Assembly (NCBI GenBank): GCA_018822435.1
Contig: JAHJKD010000003.1
Span: 1,208 to 65,207 of the forward strand
Source of the DNA: Patescibacteria group bacterium
GTDB lineage: Bacteria > Patescibacteriota > Patescibacteriia > UBA9570 > JAHJKD01
DNA length: 64,000 bases
Reading direction: 5' to 3'
A program made the position numbers and the translations under genes. The notes under the pieces are model-generated. The model made no database searches and was not told where the DNA came from. It saw only the letters and a program-made list of their open reading frames with translations. This document shows, in pieces, positions 6,635 through 60,863 of this stretch; within the stretch, counting starts at the first letter, position 1, and each line of letters begins with the position of its first letter.

Positions 6635-6691
6635 AATTTTTAGAGTTTTTTATTAAAAAATTTATTTATTACCTATTAATTAAAATATTTC

Positions 6692-6718
6692 ATATAACGT
6701 TCGTGTGTATGCGATGTT
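6692..6718. repeat. attC-like half-site F (end box plus left arm only)
   Basis: ATATAAC-GTTC-GTGTGTATGCG-ATGTT. Abuts the fic stop codon. Its arm can pair (one G-T wobble) with the arm CGCATACACGC of half-site E at 7638..7648. Confidence 0.5.
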
Positions 6719-7357
6719 TTATTTCTTTTTATTTTTTGAAAGATCTTGAGCCGTTTCTTCCAATGCTGATTTAATTATTGATTGTAACTCTTTAAGATCA
6801 CCCTGGTCAGCGTTTTGTAAAGCTTGAATATATTTTTTCCTTCCGGATTTAGTTTCCACTTTTAATTCCATTGGCGGTAAATTCAGATTCAAGAGAATAA
6901 TATTAATTAACAACCGTCCCATACGGCCATTGTAATCCTGAAAAGGATGAATCCATAAAAATCTATGATGCGCCCAGGTAAGCAGTTCAATTAATTCATC
7001 AAGAAATTTTCCATCATCTATTTTGGGAAGATTTTCCATCCTGACTTTAATATCTTCACACAGATCAATCATTAATTGGGGCACTAAAAAAAATTTTGGC
7101 GGAGTGTGATCAGAAATGTTTACCTCAATTTTGCGGAATTTACCGCCAAATTCAGGAAATATCCAACTAAAACCGACTTGATGTACTTTTTTAAGAAAAG
7201 AGGGAGTAATGGGTATTTTGCCTGATTTATATTTTTCTAAAATAAAATCCCAGGCTTTTTTAATGCCTTCAATTTCAAGGGGTATTAATTTAGAGCGGGG
7301 AATAACGCCAAAAGCAGTTTGCTTGTAGCTCGTTTCGTCTTTTTTCTTCCCGGTCAT
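6719..7357 (-). CDS. fic: Fic/Doc family protein (class I Fic toxin, AMPylation-type)
   Basis: Fic active-site motif HPFQDYNGRMGR (HxFx[DE]xNGRxxR, with Tyr in place of the first Gly). About 210 aa. A small upstream ORF carries an inhibitory motif. Confidence 0.75.
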   Translation of the reverse strand: MTGKKKDETSYKQTAFGVIPRSKLIPLEIEGIKKAWDFILEKYKSGKIPITPSFLKKVHQVGFSWIFPEFGGKFRKIEVNISDHTPPKFFLVPQLMIDLCEDIKVRMENLPKIDDGKFLDELIELLTWAHHRFLWIHPFQDYNGRMGRLLINIILLNLNLPPMELKVETKSGRKKYIQALQNADQGDLKELQSIIKSALEETAQDLSKNKKK

Positions 7358-7359
7358 AA

Positions 7360-7575
7360 TTATTTGGATTTGCTAATGACTTTCTGGACCATCTTTCTCG
7401 TGGTAGTGGGGTTTTCTGTTTTAGTGGTTCGGTAAATCATTTTTTCTTCAAATGCACGAAAATTATCTTGCCGTTCCTGGGAGGAAGATTTCCTATATTT
7501 TTTAAGTAATTTAATGATATTTTGCTTGCTCATATATTTAAAGTATAGCAAAAATACTGAAAAAGTCAATTTCAA
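7360..7575 (-). CDS. FicA/VbhA-like antitoxin candidate (true start probably the internal Met at 7533)
   Basis: Small ORF immediately upstream of fic on the same strand. Contains T-T-K-T-E-N, which fits the Fic inhibitory helix motif (S/T)xxxE(G/N) that class I antitoxins supply in trans. Confidence 0.45.
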   Translation of the reverse strand: MKLTFSVFLLYFKYMSKQNIIKLLKKYRKSSSQERQDNFRAFEEKMIYRTTKTENPTTTRKMVQKVISKSK

Positions 7576-7596
7576 AAATTAAAATAAAAAGAAATA

Positions 7597-7658
7597 AAAT
7601 ATGGGTGAAGTGAGGAGGAGGTACGACGACGAACGGAACCGCATACACGCTGTTAAAC
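7597..7658. repeat. attC-like half-site E (conserved core, right arm and end box)
   Basis: AATATGGGTGAAG...GAACCGCATACACGC-T-GTTAAAC. Its terminal box GTTAAAC is the exact reverse complement of box GTTTAAC at 8241..8247, across the def cassette. Confidence 0.5.
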
Positions 7659-7673: not shown

Positions 7674-8219
7674 CTATGTTATATAATTTATTATTTTATG
7701 AATTACATTGAGCTTCTTTTGATCATACAATTCATCTATTGAAATTAAGTTCTTACAATCCTGAATTCTATCAATATATAAAATAGCATCAAGGTGATCA
7801 ATCTCATGTTGAACTAATCCTGCGAGTTTCCCTGAAAAATTGTACATACATTTTTTGCCTTGATTATTATACGCTTTGATAGTGATTTTTTTAAATCTTT
7901 TAACAAAGCTGCGCAAATAGAAAAAACTAAGGCATCCTTCACGGTTATTGATTAATGCTTTAGACTTTTGAATGATTTGCGGATTGATAAAAATATTAAA
8001 CTTTTCTTGATGATATATAATTATTATACGAACAGGATACCCTAATTGTGGCGCACAGAGCCCATTCCCATGGGAAGATGATATTCTTTTTATTGCCTTC
8101 ATTAATCTGATAATTTTACGAGATATCATCTGGACATCTTTTGATTGAATAGACTTAAGAGGTATCCTTTTAGATTTTTTCCGTAGGATAGGATTACCTA
8201 ATTGAAGAATTTTTTTCAT
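7674..8219 (-). CDS. def: Peptide deformylase, second divergent copy carried as a cassette
   Basis: All three PDF motifs are present: GNGLCAPQLG (motif 1, GxGxAAPQ with A changed to C), EGCLS (motif 2), QHEIDHLD (motif 3, HExxH). A canonical def-fmt pair sits at 59.5-60.9 kb. Confidence 0.8.
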   Translation of the reverse strand: MKKILQLGNPILRKKSKRIPLKSIQSKDVQMISRKIIRLMKAIKRISSSHGNGLCAPQLGYPVRIIIIYHQEKFNIFINPQIIQKSKALINNREGCLSFFYLRSFVKRFKKITIKAYNNQGKKCMYNFSGKLAGLVQHEIDHLDAILYIDRIQDCKNLISIDELYDQKKLNVIHKIINYIT

Positions 8220-8240
8220 AGAAAGATTTTTCTCGATTTT

Positions 8241-8334
8241 GTTTAACGTTCCTGGCTATGCGATGTTGCGACCGAAGGGAGCAATATGGGTGAGCTCTCT
8301 CGAAAGAGAGCGAACCGCATAGCCAGTGTTATGT
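8241..8334. repeat. attC-like structured repeat D
   Basis: GTTTAAC-GTTC-CTGGCTATGCG-ATGTT ... AATATGGGTGAG-CTCTCTCGAAAGAGAG-CGAACC-GCATAGCCAG-T-GTTATGT. The 11-bp arms CTGGCTATGCG and CGCATAGCCAG are perfect complements. End boxes fit RYYYAAC and GTTRRRY. Confidence 0.6.
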
Positions 8335-8382
8335 GTTGTAATTAAATTCAGCGAGCGAAGCGAGCTATATTATTGGGGTAAT

Positions 8383-9201
8383 TTATTCTTCGAAAATTTT
8401 TTCAAAGAATTTAACACGAGATTGTTTTGGATTGGGTAATAACATAATTTCTCTTAGATTTTGTATTTTACCATCTCTGATGAGTTCGGATAATATATCT
8501 AATACGGTAGAATTCTGGCCAAATATAACTCCGCCCGGCTTACATACTCTAACCATTTCTTCCATGAGGGCATAGTTATAATCTGATTCCGGTGGAGTAC
8601 CCTGCTTGGGACGAATGATAGTGTCGTCCATTCCATTGATCACCAAATTAGCTGAATCAGACGGTGCCGTGGCAAGAGTTAATAGCACATCGTCATTGAT
8701 GTAGTAACCATTATCTAAATTCGGCATTCTGATGGATTCTGGATTTGCTGGCGGGAGTGTGTGTTTGGCCTTAGCATTTTTTGAATCAATACCGATATAT
8801 TGACTTGCTCCAAATTCTTTGACTATGTTGCCAATAGAAAAATTCGCATCTTGTAAGACTCTTTCACCACAACCTAAGTCAATTAAGATTTGTCCATTTA
8901 GCTTTTGCTGTAGATATTCTTTAATTTTTTGTCGGACTTCTGGCGACGATTCCCCATAGGGACGACTCTCTTCGTCACCCAATCCTGCCCAGTAGTCAGC
9001 GAACTCGGTTTGATAACCTCCAAATTCTGTGTGCTCAATTATCTTGGTATATATAATGAGTCTGAGCTTTTCATCAAAATTTTCATCTTTATTCCAGTCC
9101 TCAGCTTTGCTAAGAGGCGGAATTAGATTTTGGATACGGAAAAAATTTCCGATATCAAATTGACTTTCTTGTTCTCTTCTTGGTCCTCTTTCAATGCTCA
9201 T
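8383..9201 (-). CDS. Class I SAM-dependent methyltransferase (orphan, substrate unknown)
   Basis: Motif I ILIDLGCGE (hh[DE]hGxGxG) and post-I CKPGGVIFG. No adjacent restriction partner. Confidence 0.6.
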   Translation of the reverse strand: MSIERGPRREQESQFDIGNFFRIQNLIPPLSKAEDWNKDENFDEKLRLIIYTKIIEHTEFGGYQTEFADYWAGLGDEESRPYGESSPEVRQKIKEYLQQKLNGQILIDLGCGERVLQDANFSIGNIVKEFGASQYIGIDSKNAKAKHTLPPANPESIRMPNLDNGYYINDDVLLTLATAPSDSANLVINGMDDTIIRPKQGTPPESDYNYALMEEMVRVCKPGGVIFGQNSTVLDILSELIRDGKIQNLREIMLLPNPKQSRVKFFEKIFEE

Positions 9202-9269
9202 ATTTCAAATAATAAATTGCCCCAATAATATACTTTTCTGCGACAGCAGAAAAGGAATTTAATTATTAC

Positions 9270-9396
9270 ACATAACGTTCCTGCGTATGCGATGTTTGCC
9301 AGTGGTATAATTGCACGAAGTGCTTACCACTGGCAAATATGGGTGGAGGCTTGCGGAGGTACGGAGCAAGCCGTAACCGCATACGCAGTGTTAGCT
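9270..9396. repeat. attC-like structured repeat A
   Basis: ACATAAC-GTTC-CTGCGTATGCG-ATGTT-[hairpin GCCAGTGGTA..TACCACTGGC]-AATATGGGTGGAGG-[hairpin GCTTGC..GCAAGC]-CGTAAC-CGCATACGCAG-T-GTTAGCT. Arms are perfectly complementary. The left box is the reverse complement of D's right box. The right box is the reverse complement of B's left box. Confidence 0.65.
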
Positions 9397-9460
9397 GATG
9401 TATTCCTTTTCTTTTCCGACGATAGTCGGTTGTTTTAAAAATTTTCAAATTTCTTTTTCC

Positions 9461-9592
9461 GTTTTGGGTGGTGGGCAGAGGGGAATTAAAGGGGTGAATG
9501 CCCGCCACCCAAAACACCTATTTCTGGTTTGAGGGAGGGGCAAGAGGGGAACAAAAGGGGTGAATTGCCCCGACCGAAAACTCTCTATTCTA
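9461..9592. repeat. Two tandem ~60-bp G-rich hairpin repeat units
   Basis: Unit 1 is GGGTGGTGGGC-AGAGGGGAATTAAAGGGGTGAAT-GCCCGCCACCC-AAAACACCTATTTCT. Unit 2 is GAGGGAGGGGC-AAGAGGGGAACAAAAGGGGTGAATT-GCCCC... The conserved core AGAGGGGAAnnAAAGGGGTGAAT is enclosed by a stem in each unit. Confidence 0.5.
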
Positions 9593-10334
9593 CTTGTCCA
9601 ATCTCTTTTCTGTATAAACAGTAGTCACAATCTTTGTCTGCCTTTGGTATTTTGTCATTTTCCAAGCACTTCTTGATATCTTTTAATGTTTTCTCTACCC
9701 AATCGTCACTTCCGATGTATTCAATAAGGTGAATATCAAATTCTAGTTTTGCATCAAAGGCTTTTTCATCTGGTCGTCCTGTGCAGTATACAAAATAACC
9801 TGTATTTGACATTTTGAGACCGTTTTGGCGTAAGAGCCACTGATATACTTCCATTTGCCTCTTATAGCCGTCCTGCCAGTCTTTATCCAGCTCTGTGACA
9901 GCTTCTGATTTTGCAGTAGCCTTGTAGTCTACAACAATGTATTCCTTTGTTTTTGGATCAAGCCACAAATCATCAATTGCTCCGCTGACGATAAAACCTG
10001 TTGGCTTGTGTGTGCACTCAACGCCTTTAAAGTTTTCTCTCCAAATATCTAGCGATTCGTGGGCTATAGGAATAGCATTAATGCCGTATTGTTTTTGTAT
10101 GGCGTGTTGTTCGCCGTTTGCTCGGTGTGCGTCAAATTCTGTTTTTAGGAGGTTGTCTACCGCGCTATTGAGTGAAAATGGATATCCGGGCGGTCGTTTC
10201 AATCCAAGTTTGTTATCCAAATAAAAACATTTTGGACATTGCTGGAATAAATCTATTTTTGAGCGTGAAAGACGCCAGCGTTTTCCGCCGTAGTTCCAGT
10301 CTGCTTTTCGTGGGATTGAGTAGTAGTCGGACAT
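9585..10334 (-). CDS. PD-(D/E)XK nuclease family protein with four Cys (Cas4/RecB-nuclease-like fold)
   Basis: Motif GAIDDLWLD...EYIVVDYKAT (D ... [D/E]xK). Cys pairs CPKC near the N-terminus and CDYC near the C-terminus suggest a metal or Fe-S site. Confidence 0.5.
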   Translation of the reverse strand: MSDYYSIPRKADWNYGGKRWRLSRSKIDLFQQCPKCFYLDNKLGLKRPPGYPFSLNSAVDNLLKTEFDAHRANGEQHAIQKQYGINAIPIAHESLDIWRENFKGVECTHKPTGFIVSGAIDDLWLDPKTKEYIVVDYKATAKSEAVTELDKDWQDGYKRQMEVYQWLLRQNGLKMSNTGYFVYCTGRPDEKAFDAKLEFDIHLIEYIGSDDWVEKTLKDIKKCLENDKIPKADKDCDYCLYRKEIGQVE

Positions 10335-10364
10335 GAAATTTAATTATTAATTAATATTTATTCA

Positions 10365-11576
10365 TCAAATCAGTTTCTTGGCCTTGCGATACATTTTTTT
10401 ATATGAATTTTCATTCACTTTCCTCAAAAACAATTTAAGGTCATTTTTTGCAATGATTTTATCTCCAAAGTAATACGATAATATCCCACTTCCATAAAGC
10501 AAGGCTGGTTCTTTATTTTTTTGGTATTCATTATTCAAAAATTCTACTACCTCAAGTGGATTAAATCCCAGTCTTTCAACTGGAATTGAAACTAACTTCT
10601 CATAACATTTAAAAGCACTTTTATAATTTTTCTCTAATATCTTAAAAAAGGCTAAATCAACAATTGTAAGCGTAGAGCTGGGGTATTTTTGTTGAAGTTC
10701 AGTTACGACTTTTTGAGCTTCTGCAATTTTTCCTTGTTTATACAAAAATGTAGCTAAATTTGTTAGTGCAAAATGATTATTCACATCGAGTTTCAAAATT
10801 TTATTACAAAATTCAATGCCTTTATTAAAATCTTTTTTATTTAAACCAAATTCAACAACTAAAATTGTATAATCATCAATAAGGTGGATAGCTGTGCTTT
10901 GTATTAAATCATCATTCCTTTTAGCTAGACTGTTATACAAACGTTCTAATAGAGCGATACTCTTACCAATTTTTCCATAAATCTTTAGTGAAAGCGCTAT
11001 TGTATATATTGATAAATCGAAGATATTGTTTGAAACGATTTGAATATCCTCAAATGAGTTATGTTCGATAATGTTCCAGTAATTTTTTCGTGCCATTCTC
11101 GACCTTAAATCTGCCAAAATCATTTTTCCTATTCTCTTTTCCTTATCATCTGGATGACCAAACGTAAAACTTAAATTTAATTTATTTATGTTGTTTCCAT
11201 CTTTTTTTAGGTTATCAACTGTGAAATCTCCCCATATAATCAAATCAATGTCTTTTTTATTTCTAAATTTTTCTGCTTCTTCCTGATTTTTAAATTTTTT
11301 AATATCTGAAAAATCTTGAACAACTACATATTTATCTAAATCTTGTTCTTTTAGGACTTGATTTATGTTTTTCTTTATTTGTTTGAAATAACTTCCAGAG
11401 TTCAAACCTTCATCAAATTCTATAGAAAGAGCGATGTTAAAATTAGCTGGAAACCATTGGAGTTTTCTTGCTCTGAGCCAATTATATAATTGCTTACGAT
11501 AAGTCCAACAGGCAGTCCCCAAGCCCCCTATTATTAGTAATATCAGCCCACTTATTATAGATTCAGTAATTTCCAT
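10365..11576 (-). CDS. Membrane-anchored protein with a C-terminal TPR-like repeat domain (unknown function)
   Basis: N-terminal TM helix (IISGLILLIIGGLGTA). Central domain without known motifs. C-terminal helical repeats of ~34 aa (ALTNLATFLYKQGKIAEAQKVV, AFFKILEKNYKSAFKCYEKLV). Confidence 0.45.
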   Translation of the reverse strand: MEITESIISGLILLIIGGLGTACWTYRKQLYNWLRARKLQWFPANFNIALSIEFDEGLNSGSYFKQIKKNINQVLKEQDLDKYVVVQDFSDIKKFKNQEEAEKFRNKKDIDLIIWGDFTVDNLKKDGNNINKLNLSFTFGHPDDKEKRIGKMILADLRSRMARKNYWNIIEHNSFEDIQIVSNNIFDLSIYTIALSLKIYGKIGKSIALLERLYNSLAKRNDDLIQSTAIHLIDDYTILVVEFGLNKKDFNKGIEFCNKILKLDVNNHFALTNLATFLYKQGKIAEAQKVVTELQQKYPSSTLTIVDLAFFKILEKNYKSAFKCYEKLVSIPVERLGFNPLEVVEFLNNEYQKNKEPALLYGSGILSYYFGDKIIAKNDLKLFLRKVNENSYKKMYRKAKKLI

Positions 11577-11631: not shown

Positions 11632-12879
11632 TCATTTTACCAATTCACCACGAAAAGCTTTCCGGAACAGTGATTGTTGAATTTTATCAGTACGACTTTT
11701 AGCTTCTTTATATATATTTCTGGCTTCATTGACTTTACTTTTTATCATAGTTAGACGGTCAACAATCTTTTCTTGCTCCTCAATCGGCGGTAATGCTATT
11801 TGATATGTTTTAATATAATCAGTAGGAACACGAGCTTGACCCGCCGTCCCCGTCATATGTTGTTGCGCAATATGCCTAAAATAATCACTTCTTAAAATTG
11901 AATAAATGAATTTTGCATTTAGTCTGTCTGAGGGTCTAATGACATGAAATTCAGTAGTCCCAAACCCAATTCCATTAACCAAGTTATTAGCAATCGCTGA
12001 TTTACCATTTTCCATACAAGGTGTGATTTTTGCAAACAAGACATCGCCATTCTTGAAATAAGTGTAACCTTTTCGTACTTTTCCAATTTTTCTTATTTCA
12101 GGTGTTTCAATTTTCCCTGTATGCTCGTTTACTGCAGCCATTGGCACAAAACTAACATCTGTATCATCAGAAATATCTTTGACTTCGCTTTTTTTGGGAT
12201 TTATTTCAGCAATATCTTGTAATTCGACCATTTCCCAGCCTTCAGGTAGTACACTTTCATCATCTGGAATAAGCTTATGGAGTGCTGAAGACATTACGTT
12301 GGCTAAACGTATTTCAGCTTCAAAAAGTAATGACGTTGATTTTGTTAAAATACTTTTTGACTCGTTAAGTTTCATTAAAATCTCTTTTTGATTTGGAATT
12401 GGCGGAAGTGGAATTCGAAGATCTTTAATTATCGTTTGGCTTATATTTGATTGCGCCCCACCAAAACCCTTATCAATTAGGTTATCTTTTTCATTTATAA
12501 GATAAATTTTTAAAAAATCCTTTAAGATTTTACTTTCATCTGGAAAGAATGCACAAACGGCTTGGTTTGTTGTAGCTTCTATGCCAAGTTCAGCTGTTTG
12601 ACCAATGTTTGCTCCGTACATAGCCATTAAAAAAGTTCCTTTGGGTAGAATCTTTACGTTACTTGATTTTAAAGCATCTTTTGTGATTTTTTCTTCTGTT
12701 TCAAAAATTATATTTTCTTTTAATTCACCTGATTTTACCCAAGAAATTTTACCATTTTTATAAAATTCTTTATTGTTTCTACTTGGAGTTCCACCACTGG
12801 TTGTCTTACAAACAGTTTTTAGTTCTACCATTTTCCAGCCAGCAGGAAGTTCTATTTCATTATTTTTCATAATATACAT
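11632..12879 (-). CDS. hsdS: Type I restriction-modification specificity subunit HsdS
   Basis: Two target-recognition halves, each ending in the conserved motif LPPIxxQxxI (LPPIPNQKEIL and LPPIEEQEKIV), plus coiled-coil spacers. Confidence 0.8.
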   Translation of the reverse strand: MYIMKNNEIELPAGWKMVELKTVCKTTSGGTPSRNNKEFYKNGKISWVKSGELKENIIFETEEKITKDALKSSNVKILPKGTFLMAMYGANIGQTAELGIEATTNQAVCAFFPDESKILKDFLKIYLINEKDNLIDKGFGGAQSNISQTIIKDLRIPLPPIPNQKEILMKLNESKSILTKSTSLLFEAEIRLANVMSSALHKLIPDDESVLPEGWEMVELQDIAEINPKKSEVKDISDDTDVSFVPMAAVNEHTGKIETPEIRKIGKVRKGYTYFKNGDVLFAKITPCMENGKSAIANNLVNGIGFGTTEFHVIRPSDRLNAKFIYSILRSDYFRHIAQQHMTGTAGQARVPTDYIKTYQIALPPIEEQEKIVDRLTMIKSKVNEARNIYKEAKSRTDKIQQSLFRKAFRGELVK

Positions 12880-12885
12880 AGTTAA

Positions 12886-14244
12886 TTATCCCAATTCCTT
12901 TTGTAAATCTTCTAATTTATCTATCGCTTCTTTTAAAAAGTTTACACTTTCTTCAATTAAAACATTTGGCTCAGGAAGATTTGAGGGGTCATCGAAACTT
13001 TCATCTTTAAGCCATTTTAAATCTAAATTAAAATTTCTTTTTTTCAAATCTTCAAATAGGAATTTCTTCCATCGTTCTGTTTCCTGGTCTCTATTTTGAT
13101 ATTTCTCAAGAAAATCATTAAAGTATTCAGATTTTAGCGGTTTCCTTTTGGAAATTTTTTCTACATTTGTACGCAAGTCGTAAAACCACAAATTTTCTGT
13201 TTTCTCTCCTGTCTTTTCAAAAAAGATAACATTGGTTTTAACCCCAGGCGTATATGGTGTGAATGTTCCGTTTGGTAATCTAATTATGGTATGTAGATTA
13301 AAATTTTCTAAAAGCATTTTTCGTATTTTTGTCCCTGCTCCTCCTTCAAATAGAACGTTGTCTGGCATTACCATCGCACACCGACCACCATTTTTTAAAA
13401 TACTCATACAATGTTGTAGAAAGTTTAGTTGACGACTTTTGGTTACAACAAAAAAATCATCCCTACTATAAGAAACGCTGTTCGTTTTTTTGAAGGGCGG
13501 ATTTGTAAGAATTACATCATACCCATCGCCATACTTTTCTTTCAAAGAATCACCATAGGTAATTTGACCTTCTATTTCATGTAGATAAAGATTCATTATA
13601 CAAAGTCTTCTCGTTTCCCAAACAAATTCACCTCCTGAAATGGCTTCTTTTTGCAAAAAATCATATTCCTCTCTTTTTAAGCTCTTTTTTTCTTTTTCAA
13701 GCTCTTTAAAAATATACTCAAATGCTTCAATTAAGAATCCCCCCGTACCACAGGCAGGGTCATGGATTGTTTCATTGTGTTTAGGGTTTATACATTTAAC
13801 GATTGTTCGAATCAGTTCACGAGGGGTAAAATACTGACCAGCGCCTTTCTGTTCTGCTGCATATTTTGCGAGCAACCCTTCGTAAGCTGCTCCTTTAACA
13901 TCTATATCAATAGAAGACCACTCTTCATCGTCCAAAGCTCCAATTACTTTGTTTAGGCTAACAGGATTTCTAAATTTATTGTTTGATTGAGCAAAAATAT
14001 CTCCAAGCACTCCGGCTTCTTTTCCAAGATTCTTCAAAACTACTTCATAATGCTCAATAAGAGCCATGCCACTATGATTCATTAAAGTTTGCCAACTGTA
14101 TTCACTTGGTATACGAATACCTTTTTCATCAGCCATTTTGAGAAACAGCAAATATGTTAATTGTTCTATATAGTCACCATAATGCATACCTTCATCGTGA
14201 AGATTTCCTGCTAATGACCAAAGTTTTTGTACGATATCTGACAT
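12886..14244 (-). CDS. hsdM: Type I R-M N6-adenine DNA methyltransferase HsdM
   Basis: Motif IV NPPF (ILTNPPFKK). SAM-binding region DPACGTGGFL. N-terminal HsdM helical domain. Confidence 0.85.
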   Translation of the reverse strand: MSDIVQKLWSLAGNLHDEGMHYGDYIEQLTYLLFLKMADEKGIRIPSEYSWQTLMNHSGMALIEHYEVVLKNLGKEAGVLGDIFAQSNNKFRNPVSLNKVIGALDDEEWSSIDIDVKGAAYEGLLAKYAAEQKGAGQYFTPRELIRTIVKCINPKHNETIHDPACGTGGFLIEAFEYIFKELEKEKKSLKREEYDFLQKEAISGGEFVWETRRLCIMNLYLHEIEGQITYGDSLKEKYGDGYDVILTNPPFKKTNSVSYSRDDFFVVTKSRQLNFLQHCMSILKNGGRCAMVMPDNVLFEGGAGTKIRKMLLENFNLHTIIRLPNGTFTPYTPGVKTNVIFFEKTGEKTENLWFYDLRTNVEKISKRKPLKSEYFNDFLEKYQNRDQETERWKKFLFEDLKKRNFNLDLKWLKDESFDDPSNLPEPNVLIEESVNFLKEAIDKLEDLQKELG

Positions 14245-14257
14245 AGTATTTTAGTTA

Positions 14258-16939
14258 TTACATTGGTTGTAAAATATGTTCATTTATACGCTCTAGGGTT
14301 TCATTCAATTTACCTTCAAAATCCCTATTTGCTTTTGAAAAGCCACCCTTTCTACTAAAAGGCAATGAACGAAAATCGCTAGACTCTACAATGATATTTG
14401 TTTCAAGGTGGATTTTTATATCATCAAGCCATTGTTGCTGTGGCTCAGTCTCGCCCTCAAGTAACATTATCTTAAATGCTTTTTCTATACGTTGTCGTGG
14501 TGTATATAATTTTGTATTCCACATGGCGTGTGAAACAAATGCATATAAGTCAGCTGGGGTTTTAGTATGAGTTGCAATTTCATTTGCGCGTCTTAAATTA
14601 TCTTCTGTGAACCGTTCAGGTGTTTTTGCTAATTCATTTTTAAGCTCCTTGAAATGTTTCATTGAAAATTGTCTTGGTGAATTTAAAAGTATTTTAAGTG
14701 CCTCAATTGTCTTAGCATTTTGCTTAATATATTGCTTAAATGTTTCTAAGTAGTCTTTTGGTTTTAATTCTCTTCCGTCTGTAGTTCGAAAAATATATTC
14801 GGAGGTTGCAATTTCTGCCTTTTTTTCTTTAGAAATTATGAAACCTTGCCTGTAACGAGGGTAATTTTGTAAAAATTCAAGAAAATTAGGGTCTGACATT
14901 TGATTTAGAGCTTCTTCTTCTTGCTGAGCAAGCCTATCTTGAATACTTAATGAGAATTCTTGCAAGTTACCATCTGGTACTGCAAAGCGATTTTCAAGTT
15001 CTTTCCTCCCTTCTTCTGTTATATTCTTATCTACTCTTTGCAACTTCCTAGAAAGAGATTTCACGTTATCTTCAATATCTTTTCCATCACGAATTTCTTT
15101 AATGATTTCACCATAAGTCTTTCCAGCTTTCGTAATTGGTTGCATTATATCTCCGCCTTGCTCCTTCATGAAATCTATTACGCCAATAGCATCAAATACT
15201 GTGAAATGAGTTTTGTTAATATCTTTACAAAGCCGTGTGCCTCTACCAATCATTTGTTCGTAAAGAATTCGTGAACGAATAGGTCTTGCAATAAGCAAAT
15301 TTTCAATTGCTGGCACATCAACACCAGTAGAAAGCATATCAACGGTGACAACTATCCGTGGTTTTTTTAGATTTCTAAATTTACGAATTAGCTCATTTGG
15401 CTTATCGACGGTATAAGTTATTTTTTGAACAACATCATCACCTTCACCTAATTCTTTTCTAAATAGCTTTACCAATTGATTTGCATGTCGCTCATTAACA
15501 CTAAAAACTAAAGTTTTCTCATCTTTTCCAATATATTTACAGACTTCTTTAACAATTTTTCGGTTTCTATCTTCAACAGTCACTTTTCTCTCTAATCCGC
15601 TTGTATCAATATGCAAATCATCATCAAGAAGCTCATCTTTATGTTTTTTGGTTTTCCATTCCTCTATTGTAACTCCTTCTCCTTTTGAAAAAGATACTTC
15701 TTCTTTCATATCTATATCTGTTCGTATTCGTACTGCATCGAAATCTACTAAATATCCATCATCTACTGCCTTTAAATAGCCGTAAGAATACAGATCCTTT
15801 TCATCATGAACATCAAAATATGCTGCTGTGTGAGCTGCAGGCGTAGCAGTCAGTCCAAATTGATGTACATCAAAGTAATCCAAGACATATTTCCATTTAT
15901 TATAAATCGATCGATGGCACTCATCAGATATAATTAAATCAAAAGAATCAATTGGAAAATTCTTGTTATATTCAATTGGACTATCATCCCCGTCAGCCCA
16001 TTCATCTTCTGTTTTAACATCTACACCACTATCTCTGCCTTTAAGCATAGAATACAGTCTTTGTATGGTAGATACATAAACAAATGTATTTGATTTCTTT
16101 CTCTTTTTTAATTGTGATGGCTGTAATACCTCAGCATTATAATCAATTTTTTCACCATCTTCAGGCGTTGGTATCTTGTCACAATAGACAGAATATAAAG
16201 TATCAAATTTATTACCTTTTTCAGGTTCAAATGTTGAAAGAGCCGTTACTGTTTGATCTGCTAAACTTCTTCTATCAACCAAGAATAAAATTCTTTTAAA
16301 ATATCCAGACTTCATTAAATGATACATTAAGGCTGAAGCTGCAAATGTTTTTCCCGTACCAGTTGCCATTGCAATAAGCCCCATTCGTTTATTGTTCAGC
16401 AATCTGTTAACAACATATTCTGCGGCTTCTTTTTGATAAAATCTTAAAGCACGGTCGCCGTAAACAGTTTTAATCTCTTCGTTTTGAAGATACTTTATTG
16501 CGTTATTTTTATCTTCGGAAAGTCTTTCTGTTAAACTTTCTGGTGTATGAAAACCTTCAACTGCTCGACTAAAACTAGGTGATTCTCTTAAATTTTGAAA
16601 CCGTATATCTGTACCATTAGAGCTGTATACAAAAGGCACTTTGTAGCTGCCATACTTAGATTCAAAACCTTCTAAATCTTCTGCGTATCGTAAAGACTGG
16701 GTTAATACGCCATCAATTTGAGTTCCTTCCTTTTTTGCTTCAACTACACCTACAGGTTTACCATCAATTGTAAGTAAGTAATCAGCATCACCTGAGCTTG
16801 TAGGATATTCATAAATAGCCTCACAATCACTCCCTTTGATATCCGTTTTTCGCGAGACAACAGACCAGCCTGCTTTTTCAAGCAGTTTATCAATTTTTTC
16901 TGAACGTGTTTTTGATTCTTTAGGCATATTAAATTTCAT
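14258..16939 (-). CDS. hsdR: Type I restriction enzyme HsdR (helicase/nuclease subunit)
   Basis: Walker A MATGTGKTF and DEAH-box DECH (SDECHRS). N-terminal PD-(D/E)XK-type nuclease region. 893 aa. Confidence 0.85.
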   Translation of the reverse strand: MKFNMPKESKTRSEKIDKLLEKAGWSVVSRKTDIKGSDCEAIYEYPTSSGDADYLLTIDGKPVGVVEAKKEGTQIDGVLTQSLRYAEDLEGFESKYGSYKVPFVYSSNGTDIRFQNLRESPSFSRAVEGFHTPESLTERLSEDKNNAIKYLQNEEIKTVYGDRALRFYQKEAAEYVVNRLLNNKRMGLIAMATGTGKTFAASALMYHLMKSGYFKRILFLVDRRSLADQTVTALSTFEPEKGNKFDTLYSVYCDKIPTPEDGEKIDYNAEVLQPSQLKKRKKSNTFVYVSTIQRLYSMLKGRDSGVDVKTEDEWADGDDSPIEYNKNFPIDSFDLIISDECHRSIYNKWKYVLDYFDVHQFGLTATPAAHTAAYFDVHDEKDLYSYGYLKAVDDGYLVDFDAVRIRTDIDMKEEVSFSKGEGVTIEEWKTKKHKDELLDDDLHIDTSGLERKVTVEDRNRKIVKEVCKYIGKDEKTLVFSVNERHANQLVKLFRKELGEGDDVVQKITYTVDKPNELIRKFRNLKKPRIVVTVDMLSTGVDVPAIENLLIARPIRSRILYEQMIGRGTRLCKDINKTHFTVFDAIGVIDFMKEQGGDIMQPITKAGKTYGEIIKEIRDGKDIEDNVKSLSRKLQRVDKNITEEGRKELENRFAVPDGNLQEFSLSIQDRLAQQEEEALNQMSDPNFLEFLQNYPRYRQGFIISKEKKAEIATSEYIFRTTDGRELKPKDYLETFKQYIKQNAKTIEALKILLNSPRQFSMKHFKELKNELAKTPERFTEDNLRRANEIATHTKTPADLYAFVSHAMWNTKLYTPRQRIEKAFKIMLLEGETEPQQQWLDDIKIHLETNIIVESSDFRSLPFSRKGGFSKANRDFEGKLNETLERINEHILQPM

Positions 16940-16957: not shown

Positions 16958-17173
16958 CTAACCCTGATTTTCAGGTGAACTTTTTTTCAAGAATGTTATT
17001 ACGTCTTTCTTGTGATAGCGTCTTGGCTGCGTATCACTTGGACGAAAGGCTTTAAGTAGTCCTTTATCGTCCCAACGTCTTAATGTCATAAGAGAAACTT
17101 GTAGTATATCTGCAACTTCCCGAAGGGATAGTATTTCCGGCATATCCTTTAATTGGTCTACTAGGTTTTTCAT
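16958..17173 (-). CDS. Small HTH DNA-binding protein (MerR/excisionase-type helix-turn-helix)
   Basis: 71 aa. LSLREVADILQVSLMTLRRWDDKGLL is a typical excisionase/MerR-family HTH. Located between the GmrSD-like gene and hsdR. Confidence 0.5.
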   Translation of the reverse strand: MKNLVDQLKDMPEILSLREVADILQVSLMTLRRWDDKGLLKAFRPSDTQPRRYHKKDVITFLKKSSPENQG

Positions 17174-17183
17174 AACAATAAAA

Positions 17184-19250
17184 TTAAGAAGAATGCTTAT
17201 TAAGTGATTGCTGTATTAAGAAAATGGCATAATCAATCTCCTCAGGCTCAGATAAGCTTACTTCTACATCTCCATTTCCCCAGCGTCCTAAATCCGTAAC
17301 ATCTTTTGCCATTCCTTTTGGGTCATCAAGTTCCTCAAATTTCATATTTAGAGAAAGTCTTAATCTGGTTTTTTGAGGGACAACATCTACAAAGTTTGTT
17401 GAAGTTTTGAAAGCTATGTAGAGCTTCATACATTCTTCTCTAATCTCTGGATTTAAAAGCATGATTCGCTCTTTTAATAGCTCGTAGAGAGTGAACATGT
17501 CGCCTTGTAGGTATTCATAATCTTCAATGTTGTAATCAGCTTCTTTTTCTGGTTGTAAGTCTTTTTTGTACTTCTCCAATATCTCATCAGATAAAACTGG
17601 AGCTTTCCAGATTTGCAGGGCTTCTTTGCTTAGAGTTTCGGCTCGTTGTTTAATCGTTTCTTCATTCCAAGTATCAAGGTCTATTAAATCTTTATTTAAA
17701 CGCACAGAGCTTTCTTTAAATCCTTTCTGCATATCTCTTTTTTCTGTGAACGATTTATTACTCATATCAGAGTTGTACCCCGTAAGAGTAAGATTTCCGA
17801 TAGTGTGCAAATACTCACTTTGGATTCTCTGGAAGTCCTCTCCAAGTGCTTCCTTCCATTGAGGGGTTAAGGTTTGAGGCATGATATGCTCAACGCTCAA
17901 ATCATCAAGATTTACTCGCTCTTTATTGTTGTGGTGTTCAATTTTCTCGAAGAGATAACCGCTATTTCTGAAATTGTAAACATCTTTCTTGGCTAGCTCC
18001 TCCTTAAATTCACTATCCTTAGGAAGTCGGTGATAGCTCTCTCGTAGTATGAAATTAGCCATGAGGCTTTCAATGTAATTCTCTGGCTCGATTTCTTTGT
18101 AGAGGTTCGCAAAGGTCTTATTAAGGGAATTGGTAGGAATACCACAAATAGCACGTCTAAAGACGTAGCATTCAACCAGTTTGAGAACTTCAATGAAATC
18201 TTCCTTTGTGATTATGTTGTTTTCGTAATCATCATAAACACTCATCAGGAATGGGTAAGCTACCTCAACCTTTAGAGTTCTGATGTTGTTAATTATCTCG
18301 TTTATTTGATTGTCTTCTTCTTTGTTAAATTCAAGTTTGGCGTAGTACTTTGAAAACTTGTGGACGTCTGCCACTACCTCTTCAATTTCTCTTCCGAAAA
18401 TATACTGCTTGTATGTTGTGTAAACTGAATCTAGGGTTGGGATTGAGCCTGTTTTGATAGTAAGGAAGCCACGCATGAAGTAGTCAAACTTTTCTTCATT
18501 TTGACCTTCGATAAAAAGGCTCTCCATTGGTAGCCAATACTTGGTGTAAATTTCTTTCTGATGGTCTGGCTCAAGCCCCATGAGAACATAATTCCTAATA
18601 AGGTCAGATTGAGACAAATCCAGTCCGGTAGAATTAAGACTTTCAAAAATAAGCTGAGGGTTGTCCTCTCTATCTAATGCAATATCAACAATGATAAGTT
18701 TTCGTATTCCTTTGAATAAATCATCAAGGTTAATGTTGCCTTTTTCTATTTGAGTAACAAAAAATAGGTAATTTTGGTAAATACGTTCGATTTCTTCATC
18801 TTTTGATATTTCTTCACCATCAACCAATTTTCTAAATACTTCTTTGTCATGTCGTGTAAGGCTTAGTTTAATTCGTTTATCATCTTTACTGTACTCATTC
18901 ACAAGGAAAGAGTTCATGATTTGACGTTTTGTAACCTCGTATTTCTCCTCCGATTTCTTCAAGGCATTCACCATTGCCAAGAAAAGCAATGACAGGGTTG
19001 TCAGTCTCTGCTGTCCATCAATTACAAGAGCCTGATTTGTACCTGCGATGTTATACATGCCAGCGGCTACATAAACGACCGAACCTATAAAGTGAGCAGG
19101 AACTGTATCATCAGTCGAAACTCGCAAAATATCATTCCAAAGTTGCTTACATTGGATTAAATTCCAGCTATAGGTACGCTGATAAATGGGAATAATGAAC
19201 TGCTGTTCTTTATTGATGAACGATATAAAATTGGTTTCTAATGCCTTCAT
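17184..19250 (-). CDS. GmrSD-like type IV (modification-dependent) restriction endonuclease, DUF262 plus DUF1524/HNH
   Basis: N-terminal DUF262 motifs YQRTYSW and IDGQQRLTTL (ParB/Srx-like NTPase). C-terminal His-Me finger LSVEHIMPQ (DUF1524). 688 aa. Confidence 0.75.
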   Translation of the reverse strand: MKALETNFISFINKEQQFIIPIYQRTYSWNLIQCKQLWNDILRVSTDDTVPAHFIGSVVYVAAGMYNIAGTNQALVIDGQQRLTTLSLLFLAMVNALKKSEEKYEVTKRQIMNSFLVNEYSKDDKRIKLSLTRHDKEVFRKLVDGEEISKDEEIERIYQNYLFFVTQIEKGNINLDDLFKGIRKLIIVDIALDREDNPQLIFESLNSTGLDLSQSDLIRNYVLMGLEPDHQKEIYTKYWLPMESLFIEGQNEEKFDYFMRGFLTIKTGSIPTLDSVYTTYKQYIFGREIEEVVADVHKFSKYYAKLEFNKEEDNQINEIINNIRTLKVEVAYPFLMSVYDDYENNIITKEDFIEVLKLVECYVFRRAICGIPTNSLNKTFANLYKEIEPENYIESLMANFILRESYHRLPKDSEFKEELAKKDVYNFRNSGYLFEKIEHHNNKERVNLDDLSVEHIMPQTLTPQWKEALGEDFQRIQSEYLHTIGNLTLTGYNSDMSNKSFTEKRDMQKGFKESSVRLNKDLIDLDTWNEETIKQRAETLSKEALQIWKAPVLSDEILEKYKKDLQPEKEADYNIEDYEYLQGDMFTLYELLKERIMLLNPEIREECMKLYIAFKTSTNFVDVVPQKTRLRLSLNMKFEELDDPKGMAKDVTDLGRWGNGDVEVSLSEPEEIDYAIFLIQQSLNKHSS

Positions 19251-19369: not shown

Positions 19370-19500
19370 TTCCGCCGATAGGCGGAACTCCATATATTCC
19401 CCTCATTAAAAAAGCGTTTCCGTAGCGTAGCGGAGGAAACACCATATTTCCCCTTATAAATAAATCGTTTTCGGAGCAAAGCGGAGAAAACACCTTATAT
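19370..19500. repeat. Three tandem ~45-bp hairpin repeat units
   Basis: Units are GTTCCGCC-GATA-GGCGGAAC-TCCATATATTCCCCTCATT, GTTTCC-GTAGCGTAGC-GGAGGAAAC-ACCATATTTCCCCTTAT and GTTTTC-GGAGCAAAGCGGAG-AAAAC-ACCTTATATCCACTC. Hairpin stems differ between units but the tail nCCATATnTCCCCT is conserved. Confidence 0.5.
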
Positions 19501-19582
19501 CCACTCTAAAAATAAAGAAAAAGAAATTTGAAAATTTTTTAAAACAATTGGGCGATAGCCCAGAAAAGAAAAGGAATATTTC

Positions 19583-19697
19583 AGCTAACGTTTCGGCATA
19601 TACGATGTTGCACGGGTGTATAATAGCCGACAGGCTACACCCGTGCAATATGGGCGGAGCGACCATCGGGAGCGTAGCCGTATATGCCGTGTTATAT
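19583..19697. repeat. attC-like structured repeat B
   Basis: AGCTAAC-GTTT-CGGCATATACG-ATGTT-[hairpin GCACGGGTGTA..TACACCCGTGC]-AATATGGGCGGAGC-...-CGTATATGCCG-T-GTTATAT. Arms are perfect complements and covary relative to A and D. The left box is the reverse complement of A's right box. The right box is the reverse complement of C's left box. Confidence 0.65.
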
Positions 19698-19721
19698 GAT
19701 GTAATTTATCAAAATTTTTTA

Positions 19722-20870: not shown

Positions 20871-20912
20871 GGTGCGAAATATTAAAAATTAAAAATTTTG
20901 ATAAATTATTTC

Positions 20913-21001
20913 ATATAACGTTTCGGCATAGCCGAAGTTTGACGGGTGTAAAATACGCCGAAGGTGTACACCCGTCAAATTTGGGTGAGCGAGCGTTAAA
21001 A
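20913..21001. repeat. attC-like structured repeat C (variant)
   Basis: ATATAAC-GTTTCGGCATAGCCGAAGTT-[hairpin TGACGGGTGTA..TACACCCGTCA]-AATTTGGGTGAGCGAGC-GTTAAAA. The left arm self-pairs here (TTCGGC-ATA-GCCGAA). Confidence 0.5.
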
Positions 21002-21021
21002 ATAAAATTGTTTTTATTCGT

Positions 21022-21462
21022 TTAGAATAATAACTTGTATGTTACTCCTTCTTTCCATTGTGGATTTTCCCATTCTTTGAAATCAAAATTTTCACATAGA
21101 TTTCGCATAGGAGAATTTTTAAAAGCGGTTTCTGTAACAACTCCTGTAGCTTTTTTGTTTTTTGCGTGTTCAATACATCTACCCATCAGTTTTTTTCCTA
21201 TACCAAGCTTTTGAAAATATGGATCAACGAGTATTTCACGGATGAAAAAGAAATTGTCTTCCCACCAACCTCTGTCTATAGAACAAAAAGCCACAAATTC
21301 AGCTCCTTTCTTTGCGATAAGATAAAGGCTATCTTTTAGCTGAAAGTGTTTTTTTAGTGAATCTATTGTGGCTTTGTCGTAGGTATAATTGAAAGATTTT
21401 TTATTACGTAAAAAATCAATTTCTTTTTCATTTTTCATCTCTGTAATTTTGATTTCATCCAT
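21022..21462 (-). CDS. GNAT-family N-acetyltransferase
   Basis: Acetyl-CoA-binding motif A QKLGIGKKLMGRCIEHAK (Q/RxxGxG/A). About 145 aa, the typical size for a single GNAT domain. Confidence 0.75.
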   Translation of the reverse strand: MDEIKITEMKNEKEIDFLRNKKSFNYTYDKATIDSLKKHFQLKDSLYLIAKKGAEFVAFCSIDRGWWEDNFFFIREILVDPYFQKLGIGKKLMGRCIEHAKNKKATGVVTETAFKNSPMRNLCENFDFKEWENPQWKEGVTYKLLF

Positions 21463-21483
21463 AGAATTAAAACAATTTTATTT

Positions 21484-21513
21484 AGCTCGCGAACCGGCTA
21501 TGCCGTGTTAGCT
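21484..21513. repeat. Truncated attC-like site G (arm plus end box only)
   Basis: AGCTCGCGAACCGGCTATGCCGT-GTTAGCT. Resembles only the right arms of A, D and E. Box GTTAGCT is the reverse complement of AGCTAAC at 21783..21789. Confidence 0.45.
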
Positions 21514-21521
21514 GAAGTTAA

Positions 21522-21917: not shown

Positions 21918-22739
21918 ATGCAAGATTACCTCAAAAAGGCAAAGGAAGAGCTTTTGGTTCGGAATTATAGCCAAAAGACTATTAAAAGTTATACTTCTTG
22001 TTTGCGGAACTATTTTGAATATTTAGATTCTGTTGGTTTTGATTTGGGAGTGGTGGACAGGGAAGTGATAAAAAAATTCTTATTAAAGAAAAAGGGGAAA
22101 GGGTATTCACCACAAACTTTGAATCTTTTTCTCAATGCGATTAAATTTTTTTATAGAGAAATTATTAAATCACAGGAGGAAATTGATTTGAAGTTTTCCA
22201 AACGGTCGCAGAAATTGCCGGTGGTGCTATCGCGCAATGAAATCCAGCTCATCCTAGATGAGGTCGCTAATTCCAAACATAAGCTGCTGATCGGGTTGAC
22301 TTATGGGGCAGGCTTAAGGGTGAGTGAAGTCATAAATTTGAAGGTCAGGGACATTGACTTGGAGAGAGGAGTAATTGCTGTCCGAGCCGGGAAAGGGGAT
22401 AAGGATAGGATCACGGTTTTGCCTGAAAAATTATCGTCTGAAATAATGGCTAGGATAAGGGGAAGGAGTGGGCCGGAGTTTGTTTTTGTCAGTGAACGGG
22501 GCGGACGGTTGACAGCAAGAACAGCACAGAAAGTATTTGAAAATGCTTTGCGGAAGGCAGGGATCCAAAAAGATGCCACTTTTCATTCATTGCGCCATAG
22601 TTTTGCGACTCATTTACTAGAGAGCGGGACGGACATCAGATATGTGCAGACATTGTTGGGACATCGCAATATTCGGACCACGCAAATTTATACCCAGGTG
22701 AGCACGGCTAATATCAGGGCCATTGCCAGCCCGCTATAA
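21918..22739 (+). CDS. Site-specific tyrosine recombinase (XerC/XerD/IntI superfamily), the presumptive cassette integrase
   Basis: C-terminal catalytic region with R (LRVSE), K (GKGDKDR), HxxR (HSLRHSFATHLL), R and Y (HRNIRTTQIYTQV). N-terminal core-binding domain. Only 273 aa, and the segment between the KxxR box and HxLRH is ~58 aa, too short for the IntI-specific insertion. Confidence 0.85.
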   Translation: MQDYLKKAKEELLVRNYSQKTIKSYTSCLRNYFEYLDSVGFDLGVVDREVIKKFLLKKKGKGYSPQTLNLFLNAIKFFYREIIKSQEEIDLKFSKRSQKLPVVLSRNEIQLILDEVANSKHKLLIGLTYGAGLRVSEVINLKVRDIDLERGVIAVRAGKGDKDRITVLPEKLSSEIMARIRGRSGPEFVFVSERGGRLTARTAQKVFENALRKAGIQKDATFHSLRHSFATHLLESGTDIRYVQTLLGHRNIRTTQIYTQVSTANIRAIASPL

Positions 22740-59580: not shown

Positions 59581-60415
59581 GGTGACCTTTTAAAAATTCT
59601 GCATAGGACATTGATTGTTTGCCTTCTGGTTGAATTTCAGCAATCACTAATTCCTCGCCCTTAAGATGGGCTTTTTTTATTTTATATCTTTTATCTTTCC
59701 ATTTGAAAAATATGCCCGGCCATGGGGTATAAGCTCGAAGTTTATTCATTATTTCAACTGGTTCGTCTTTTTTTATATCAATTTCACCATCTTCTCTTTT
59801 AATCATTTTGGAAAAAGTGGCCTTAGACCCATCCTGAGGTTGGGGTTTAATAGAATTTTTCAGATATAGTTTTATTGTTTTTACTAACAATTCTGCGCCT
59901 TCTTGTGCACAAATATTGCTCAAGGCCGGATAATCAGTATTTTGAGGTATTTTTATTATTTGCTGAGAGAGGATAGGACCGGAATCCATGCCTTTATCCA
60001 GCTCCATGATTGTAATTCCGGTTTCAGGGTATCCGTTTAATAAAGCGGACTGCATGGGTGAGGGGCCGCGCAGGTCAGGCAGCAGGGAAGGATGTAAGTT
60101 AATAAAACCGCATGTAGGAATGCCTAGGATTTCCTGGGGAATTATTTTTCCATAAGCAACTACGATTCCTAAATCTGGTTTTAAGTTTTTAATGAAGTCA
60201 GAAGAAAGTTTTTCGGGTTGATGAAGCTCAAGATTTTTTTCTTTAGCCAGCAGAGCTACTGGTGGAGGGGTAAGAATTTTTTTACGACCAACTGGCTTAT
60301 CTGGCTGGGTAATAACTGTAATTAAAAAATCCCCTTCATCAAGCAATGATTTCAAAGAAGGAATAGCGAAGTCGGGCGTACCGAAAAATAATATATTAGT
60401 CATTGATCCGATCAA
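59555..60415 (-). CDS. fmt: Methionyl-tRNA formyltransferase
   Basis: N-terminal formyltransferase domain (ILFFGTPDFAIPSL...HPSLLP, SLLPxxRG motif). Adjacent to def. Confidence 0.8.
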   Translation of the reverse strand: MIGSMTNILFFGTPDFAIPSLKSLLDEGDFLITVITQPDKPVGRKKILTPPPVALLAKEKNLELHQPEKLSSDFIKNLKPDLGIVVAYGKIIPQEILGIPTCGFINLHPSLLPDLRGPSPMQSALLNGYPETGITIMELDKGMDSGPILSQQIIKIPQNTDYPALSNICAQEGAELLVKTIKLYLKNSIKPQPQDGSKATFSKMIKREDGEIDIKKDEPVEIMNKLRAYTPWPGIFFKWKDKRYKIKKAHLKGEELVIAEIQPEGKQSMSYAEFLKGHPTFSELSQ

Positions 60416-60863
60416 TAAATAAAATGCCGTCTAAGTGGTCAACTTCATGCTGGATAACGCGGGCAAACAAACCTTTGGCTTTGAATTCTATTTTTTCTCC
60501 GTTTTCATTTAGGGCTTTGAATCTGATCTTATTAGGACGGGAAATATCAGCAAATTCACCAGGCAGAGACAGGCAGCCCTCTTCTGCCGTATTTATTTTT
60601 GTAGATAAAAAAGTAATTTTAGGATTAATTAAAATTAGATCTTCATTAGTGGGGGAGGCAGCCTTTCCAATTACGACAAAACGAAGATTTGTGCCAACTT
60701 GGGGAGCGGCCAGGCCGATGCCATCGTCTTCATACATGACTTTTTTCATGGCATCAAAAAAACCTTGATTATATTGGATAATCTGTTCACCTGAAATTTC
60801 ATCAGACTTTTTTCTTAGGATTGGGTTCTTTGCCCCGGTTTGAATTGATAAATTATTGTTCAT
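60396..60863 (-). CDS. def: Peptide deformylase (canonical copy)
   Basis: GIGLAAPQVG, EGCLSLPG and QHEVDHLDG. Translationally coupled to fmt. Confidence 0.85.
   Translation of the reverse strand: MNNNLSIQTGAKNPILRKKSDEISGEQIIQYNQGFFDAMKKVMYEDDGIGLAAPQVGTNLRFVVIGKAASPTNEDLILINPKITFLSTKINTAEEGCLSLPGEFADISRPNKIRFKALNENGEKIEFKAKGLFARVIQHEVDHLDGILFIDRIND

Follow-up and report, generated by a model that had tools for sequence, protein, structure and literature searches.

The window analysed here, a 64-kb stretch of contig JAHJKD010000003.1 from a Patescibacteria group bacterium, carries two neighbouring minus-strand genes, one encoding a nuclease of the PD-(D/E)XK type with two pairs of cysteines (Cys4) and the other a membrane-anchored protein with tetratricopeptide repeats (TPR protein). 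The two open reading frames (ORFs) are separated by a 30-bp spacer and lie directly downstream of hsdS on the same strand, in the layout given by the initial annotation. Upstream of the TPR gene, again on the same strand, hsdR, hsdM and hsdS make up a complete type I restriction-modification (R-M) system which, with the GmrSD-type enzyme beyond it, places both genes in the defence-island setting that had been proposed for them (Table 1). On the coding strand, no terminator-like site was found between the genes from hsdS through the TPR gene to the nuclease; GmrSD is preceded by a promoter-like site, and the nuclease gene has hairpins downstream of it. A search of the window for tRNA genes found none, and a tRNA-linked integration site was therefore ruled out as an explanation.

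Table 1. Features of the window and copies of the structured element R1 in other fetched loci (L numbers). CM, covariance model.
Feature	Sequence	Position	Strand	Remarks
Split R1 copy	Window	6690-6716 + 7597-7655 (span 6690-7655)	+	Halves pair across Fic (6719-7357) and a 71-aa ORF
R1 copy	Window	8239-8338	+	Between 272-aa gene and cassette copy of def; fold, covarying stem, CM
R1 copy	Window	9268-9400	+	Downstream of nuclease; DNA fold z-score -6.4, covarying stem, CM 121 bits
Inverted repeat, left arm	Window	9385-9590	.	Tandem hairpins with AGGGGAA loops; counterparts align in L047/L048
Cys4 PD-(D/E)XK nuclease gene	Window	9585-10334	-	249-aa ORF
TPR gene	Window	10365-11576	-	403-aa ORF
hsdS	Window	11632-12879	-	Pfam, PADLOC, NCBIfam
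hsdM	Window	12886-14244	-	Pfam, PADLOC, NCBIfam
hsdR, EcoAI/EcoEI-like	Window	14258-16939	-	Pfam, PADLOC, NCBIfam
HTH_17/MerR-like regulator (small HTH gene)	Window	16958-17173	-	Pfam, PADLOC
GmrSD-type type IV restriction enzyme with DUF5655	Window	17184-19250	-	Pfam, PADLOC
Inverted repeat, right arm	Window	19385-19595	.	Homologous to L047 3202-3394, bordering a different type I R-M cassette there
R1 copy	Window	19581-19701	+	Upstream of GmrSD-to-nuclease block; fold, covarying stem, CM
Split R1 copy	Window	20907-20997 + 21487-21518 (span 20907-21518)	+	Halves pair across GNAT gene (21022-21462)
Tyrosine recombinase, XerA/integron-integrase type, 273 aa	Window	21918-22739	+	PF00589; divergent from minus-strand array
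R1 copies	L048	3920-4042, 4726-4855
R1 copies	L010	6250-6466, 8729-8943
R1 copies	L016	42-127, 3490-3599
R1 copy	L034	796-908
R1 copy	L037	774-881

Co-occurrence of the nuclease and TPR genes

The initial annotation had read the two genes as a module of membrane sensor and effector nuclease, and had named co-occurrence across genomes as a check on that idea. We fetched 69 loci, 44 with a homologue of the TPR gene (approximately 17 independent) and 26 with a homologue of the nuclease gene. A tblastn search over these loci found both genes together in L013 only, so that beyond the window their co-occurrence is essentially lacking and the proposed module is not borne out; similarly, a TPR homologue is absent from all 17 nuclease contexts that were collected independently of the TPR protein. 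The order in L013 (type I R-M, YgjP-like peptidase, nuclease, TPR gene) is the reverse of that in the window, and the longest ORFs of the two genes overlap there at stop and start. The two families also differ in size by approximately 100-fold, with at least 8000 homologous clusters for the nuclease against 81 for the TPR protein.

Composition and homology both change between the two genes. GC content at third codon positions (GC3) is 0.38 for the nuclease gene, similar to the backbone (0.353 ± 0.041, computed from 20 ORFs), and 0.233 for the TPR gene, similar to hsdS, hsdM and hsdR (0.21–0.25). In L047/L048, from a close relative, the nuclease is 94% identical to that of the window, the TPR gene is absent and upstream lies a different type I system, whose hsdM has 734 aa and whose hsdR includes a T1R_D3-like domain. 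A blastn comparison of the window with L047/L048 showed homology at 9586–10352 only, with its edge a little upstream of the start codon of the nuclease gene, resuming at 19397–19589 beyond GmrSD; the break in homology and the break in composition thus both fall within or beside the 30-bp spacer. PADLOC has no model that matches the TPR protein and its matches to the nuclease were generic Cas4 models, so no catalogued defence system corresponds to the pair. Because of family sizes, co-occurrence, composition and the homology break, a dedicated sensor-plus-nuclease system is not supported, and the two genes should not be catalogued as a two-gene anti-phage system.

The nuclease belongs to a large conserved family

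The nuclease matches PF12705 (PDDEXK_1) at 53.4 bits over residues 21–242 (Pfam gathering cut-off 22), which agrees with its first assignment to the PD-(D/E)XK nucleases. Matches to Cas4 models are below cut-off (PF01930, 22.0 bits against 22.7; TIGR00372, 29.9 bits against 65) or generic (PADLOC Cas4 models, 1.6e-9), and no cas genes were found among the annotated neighbours of the sampled nuclease contexts; the suggested Cas4/AddB-like character outside a CRISPR setting is in line with both results. In an alignment of 21 homologues approximately 100 of the 249 columns are invariant. The residues common to all 21 include D121/D122 (IDDLW), D136-Y-K138 (VDYK) and Q160...Y164 (QxxxY; RQMEVYQW), as well as the cysteines of CPKC (C33/C36) and CDYC (C236/C239) and also C184; the paired cysteines have a 2+2 layout (C33-x2-C36 ... 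C236-x2-C239).

The best 120 nuclease clusters share 65–94% identity and are spread over several candidate phyla of Patescibacteria. Comparison with PHROGs gave one family of unknown function and weak exonuclease matches, while sequence and profile searches against the PDB returned only noise, with no detectably related solved structure and no solved Cas4. Judged by its sequence, the nuclease is a predicted stand-alone Cas4/RecB-like enzyme in a very large and strongly conserved Patescibacteria family, and it is a new member of the already known solo Cas4-like group. Solo Cas4 is common in the Candidate Phyla Radiation (CPR) and in DPANN, and its adjacency to R-M genes in DPANN has been taken to reflect a role in defence that is still uncharacterised (Hudaiberdiev et al., 2017, PMC5704561).

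Diverse defence systems lie directly upstream of the nuclease in most contexts

With near-identical loci counted once, there are 19 independent nuclease contexts, and in 14 of them a defence system lies directly upstream of the nuclease on the same strand, with gaps of 0–56 nt. The kinds found are type I, II, IIG, III and IV restriction, Gabija-like, SMODS with SLATT, HerA and SMC-like systems. In the window the upstream genes are GmrSD, type I R-M and then the TPR gene; L013 has a type I R-M, L047/L048 another type I R-M, and L050 GmrSD_N. Two Dcm methylases, a BpuJI_N/NOV_C enzyme (a restriction endonuclease) and a 488-aa protein precede the nuclease in L051, and SNF2, an N6_N4 methyltransferase, ResIII and T5orf172 do so in L052. 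Nine loci derived from IMG/VR (L059–L067; eight independent) all have a defence system directly upstream, namely an Eco57I/TaqI_C type IIG enzyme (L059/L060), hsdR with an OLD-family ATPase and a UvrD helicase (L061, Gabija-like), SMC/AAA_21 (L062), a methyltransferase with ResIII (L063), SNF2 (L064), HerA (L065), methyltransferases with NOV_C and DUF3644 (L066), and hsdR with SMODS-AGS_C and SLATT_4 (L067). The variety of these upstream partners is too great for the nuclease to be functionally paired with any one of them in particular. In the other five of the 19 contexts (L043/L044, L045, L046, L049 and L053–L058) the nuclease is not directly preceded by a defence gene, and most of these are neighbourhoods of housekeeping genes; L045 does have a type II R-M, two genes downstream.

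The TPR protein and its gene neighbourhoods

An AlphaFold2 model of the TPR protein, built on 34 homologues, has a mean confidence (pLDDT) of 88.7. It shows a transmembrane (TM) and juxtamembrane helix at residues 2–41 (hydrophobic stretch 5–25), an alpha/beta domain at 46–170 whose fold has no assignment, and a helical repeat at 171–403 with pLDDT above 90. The C-terminal half retrieved with Foldseek structures of consensus TPR proteins, OGT and KLC (each at probability 1.0) and of LapB, at E-values down to 3.6e-5, and Pfam TPR models score just under their cut-offs (TPR_2, 26.3 against 27). The architecture expected for this protein, an N-terminal TM helix followed by a central domain and C-terminal TPR-like repeats, is therefore confirmed. 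Modelled separately (pLDDT 85.8), the N-domain gave weak PelC-like matches only (E 5.5e-3, TM-score approximately 0.3) and no match to viral models; a TIR or enzyme-like N-domain was dropped as it had no structural match. Since the TM helix has a short, acidic N-terminus before it and an Arg/Lys-rich segment after it, we infer from the positive-inside rule that the bulk of the protein is probably cytoplasmic.

The TPR protein is in a small, sporadically distributed and uncharacterised family. A search returned 81 homologues, the next best after the self-match being 55% identical, and only six loci, from unrelated phyla, were found in 185,579 species genomes. The bins that contain these six loci are labelled Peribacteria, Magasanikbacteria, Saccharibacteria, Firestonebacteria, Delongbacteria and Ignavibacteriaceae. 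With a profile of the N-domain, 186 representatives (50% identity) were found among 1.84 billion proteins; those among the matches listed are of similar length and have the domain at the same N-terminal position. In four rows of the alignment of TPR homologues (alignment A1, rows P0188, P0192, P0195 and P0198) tryptophan stands at many positions where all others have glycine (LNSW and IIWWDF, for example), which suggests that these come from lineages in which UGA encodes glycine (code 25) but that UGA was read as tryptophan in their translation.

Neighbours of the TPR gene vary among its approximately 17 independent loci. They include Bro-N and AAA_28 (L001/L032); GmrSD_N, a HEPN protein and a serine recombinase (L005); hsdM-YhcG-hsdS-DUF2971 with KilA-N (L012); Fic, GmrSD_N-HNH and a wHTH protein (L035); a RecD/TraI-like helicase (L020); a trypsin-like peptidase (L016); ribonucleotide reductase (L008); a divergent tyrosine integrase (L010); and serine recombinases (L023 and L068). 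Recombinases are often adjacent, the TPR gene is usually the last in a co-directional run, and viral contigs yielded no copy of it. This pattern is typical of mobile accessory cargo that leans towards defence islands. Elsewhere it looks like a cassette in its own right, because copies of the structured element R1, described below, lie 3–125 nt from its ends in three loci: the distance from the TPR stop codon to the start of R1 is 3 nt in L034 and 125 nt in L016, and in L037 R1 ends 38 nt before the start codon.

A repeat array beside a tyrosine recombinase

Between 6.7 and 21.8 kb of the window, minus-strand genes are separated by copies of R1, a structured element of 100–135 nt here and of approximately 85 to 215 nt across contigs. 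Its conserved ends (TCAtATAAC ... GTTatATGA) enclose a covarying 11-bp inner stem, two internal hairpins and a conserved ATATGGG box. As single-stranded DNA the element folds with z-scores of -6.3 to -7.6, and compensatory changes occur in four of the 10 pairs of the inner stem, with none broken. In two split copies the halves pair perfectly across the genes they enclose (GNAT in one; Fic and a 71-aa ORF in the other). The arms of R1 carry a bulge, and the copies were found by a gapped scan and a covariance model, not by an ungapped scan. This model, built from five copies, detected further copies in L048, L010, L016, L034 and L037, with none in nuclease-only loci and none elsewhere in the window; Rfam gave no match to the structured repeats or the window at the gathering score or at E-values up to 1.

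The recombinase at the edge of the array scored 229 bits against NF040815 (XerA/integron integrase; cut-off 220) and 216.7 bits against TIGR02249 (integron integrase; cut-off 265), the latter in two stretches of which the first ends at model position 177 of 315. R1 copies may serve as attC-like sites or as inversion sites whose spacers match, or they may form an RNA structure, and the array has the look of a Patescibacteria platform of the integron-like or invertible-cassette kind; searches of the literature for integrons in this lineage or in CPR returned nothing relevant. Hairpin A of several R1 copies (sites 9290–9320 and 19610–19625) carries a TATAAT box on the strand opposite the genes (TGGTATAAT at approximately 9305; GTGTATAAT at approximately 19615), and R1 may act as a promoter switch if the segment inverts, the box then facing the downstream genes.

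An inverted repeat of approximately 200 nt brackets the block from the nuclease to GmrSD and is common to the window and L047/L048. A reading of 9250–9581 and 19397–19703 as attL/attR direct repeats of a single integrative element was rejected, as these stretches are copies of the repeat family plus this inverted repeat. Among the other loci, inverted repeats flank the nuclease in L013 only, where a perfect 99-nt repeat (1–99 and 10561–10659) surrounds the block of HTH gene, type I R-M, nuclease and TPR gene; one copy lies at the contig end, and an assembly artefact is possible. None was found around the nuclease in L043–L067, and a nuclease transposon bounded by inverted repeats is thus not general.

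The window has two peptide deformylase genes, one in the array (7674–8219) and one at 60399–60827; the former has a low GC content (0.289), is only 37% identical to the latter and appears to be a paralogue carried on a cassette. A Fic/Doc protein (PADLOC PDC-S04/SoFic-like) and its 71-aa upstream ORF (6719–7575), which lie inside a split repeat, are possibly a toxin-antitoxin-like pair. A 272-aa protein (8383–9201), with no match in Pfam, PADLOC, NCBIfam or PHROGs, stands alone in the slot between two R1 copies.

Interpretation of the locus

Our analysis indicates that the nuclease and the TPR gene are probably neighbours by circumstance rather than partners, the nuclease being a stable resident and the TPR gene mobile cargo. 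The nuclease gene would stay in place while diverse defence systems are gained and lost just upstream of it, on its own strand, and it would mark the downstream edge of the defence-gene cluster. Its motifs point to metal-dependent processing or degradation of DNA ends as its likely chemistry, and the Cys4 site, holding a metal or an Fe-S cluster, probably staples its N- and C-termini together. The TPR gene would have arrived in the genome of the window together with the low-GC hsdRMS block, and would sit in other genomes beside recombinases or defence genes or bracketed by attC-like repeats; its product, a putative membrane-anchored scaffold with no recognisable catalytic domain, may act alone by binding proteins at the membrane, as an abortive-infection-type sensor or tether. 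The region from 6.7 to 21.8 kb would then consist of gene cassettes and structured repeats arrayed beside the XerA/integron-integrase-like recombinase.

Several observations weigh against this interpretation. The nine IMG/VR loci are on contigs classed as viral and so are a biased sample, and the tiny gaps upstream of the nuclease are explained equally well by co-transcription, and hence a functional link, and by an anchor gene. Further, L013 repeats the adjacency of nuclease and TPR gene, again beside a type I R-M, and chance adjacency twice is unlikely unless both genes are drawn to R-M loci, as argued here.

The upstream gaps, with a defence system in 14 of the 19 contexts, also suit a different role, in which the nuclease is a generalist accessory effector that is co-transcribed with the upstream defence system and degrades or resects the DNA ends left by that system, the TPR gene being unrelated; it would clean up much as RecBCD/AddAB does, in bacteria whose repair machinery is minimal. 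Its motifs of the RecB type, QxxxY among them, are consistent with such an enzyme, and a Cas4-family enzyme is reported to cooperate with pAgo (PMC12094033). However, some of the upstream systems (SMODS with SLATT) are not DNA-cutting, the contexts that lack an upstream defence gene do not fit, and the conservation of the nuclease resembles that of a housekeeping gene. We regard this role as tenable but doubtful and favour the nuclease as a resident anchor over a generalist processor of DNA ends. For the TPR protein, a role as an accessory to type I R-M, such as a membrane tether or regulator of the HsdR/M/S complex, is suggested by its sharing the GC3 of hsdRMS and by a type I R-M within a few genes in four of the approximately 17 TPR loci (the window, L012, L013 and L068); this seems unlikely given that most TPR loci lack any type I R-M, that the hsdR families differ between loci and that the gene is placed singly between R1 repeats in L034 and L037, which argues for autonomy.

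A self-contained two-gene anti-phage system, with the TPR protein as a membrane sensor of infection that activates or recruits the nuclease encoded next to it, is very improbable. The two genes share a strand and adjoin each other without an intervening terminator, both are in a defence context and L013 provides a second adjacency, but this is the one co-occurrence in approximately 17 TPR loci, none was seen in the 17 TPR-independent nuclease contexts, and the order in L013 is reversed. The difference in family size and the GC3 and homology breaks at the spacer point the same way, and a nuclease with 65–94% identity across classes is far too conserved to be paired with a protein whose identity falls to 40–55%.

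Beyond the idea of neighbours by circumstance, we put forward as a speculation of rather low probability that a near-universal Cas4-like nuclease of Patescibacteria is a shared downstream partner or docking point for most of their defence systems (type I–IV restriction, Gabija-like, CBASS-like and HerA-based), these clusters and TPR-type cargo being, in some genomes, cassettes of an integron-like platform with a XerA-type recombinase and a new attC-like class of site.

The evidence against cataloguing the pair as an anti-phage system saves cloning effort aimed at it, and two leads beyond the pair itself arise from where the nuclease recurrently lies and from the array of repeats. A conserved Cas4-like nuclease at the end of most sampled Patescibacteria defence clusters would be a practical marker for defence islands in poorly annotated CPR genomes, and the enzyme is a candidate shared processor of DNA ends. 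The TPR gene appears to be among the genes moved by the R1 array beside the recombinase of Xer/integron type; if the repeats are recombination sites, this would be an integron-like system in a lineage for which the literature searched describes none.

Comparison with known systems

The array resembles the cassette arrays of integrons (IntI with attC) in having a divergent tyrosine recombinase, co-oriented genes separated by imperfect palindromes and cassette-typical cargo (GNAT, Fic and defence genes). R1 itself could be attC-like, being an imperfect palindrome of 85–215 nt with conserved AAC...GTT and a covarying inner stem. In contrast to integrons, the recombinase is short (273 aa) and falls under the integron-integrase cut-off with a split match, one 'cassette' is approximately 10 kb and is also bounded by the 200-nt inverted repeats, and two R1 repeats enclose genes within their loops, whereas attC sites are not known to enclose genes.

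LapB (YciM), which was among the Foldseek matches, is a cytoplasmic TPR adaptor anchored in the membrane at its N-terminus and resembles the predicted layout of the TPR protein, a TM helix first and then a TPR superhelix in the cytoplasm. The likeness is one of structure; the TPR protein lacks the rubredoxin domain, has an extra alpha/beta domain between the TM helix and the TPR region, and is encoded in a mobile or defence context and not in one of lipopolysaccharide genes.

Like the solo Cas4/PF12705 proteins (Hudaiberdiev et al., 2017, PMC5704561), the nuclease has a RecB-type PD-(D/E)XK core with QxxxY and four conserved cysteines, and solo Cas4 is likewise found outside CRISPR loci, commonly in CPR genomes and beside R-M genes. 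It differs from Cas4 in scoring under the curated cut-offs for that family (TIGR00372, 29.9/65; PF01930, 22.0/22.7) and in being neither fused to nor paired with a helicase. Cas4 and AddB have one N-terminal and three C-terminal cysteines that ligate a 4Fe-4S cluster; the window nuclease instead has CX2C...CX2C plus the invariant C184.

A close parallel for the placement of the nuclease is with the defence hot spots of E. coli that are flanked by core genes (PMC10121019), where, among related genomes, very different defence systems are swapped in beside a conserved gene, in some cases with a recombinase nearby. The locus described here differs from these in its lineage, Patescibacteria, and in having one evident conserved flank gene which is itself a nuclease, always co-oriented with its cargo and almost abutting it.

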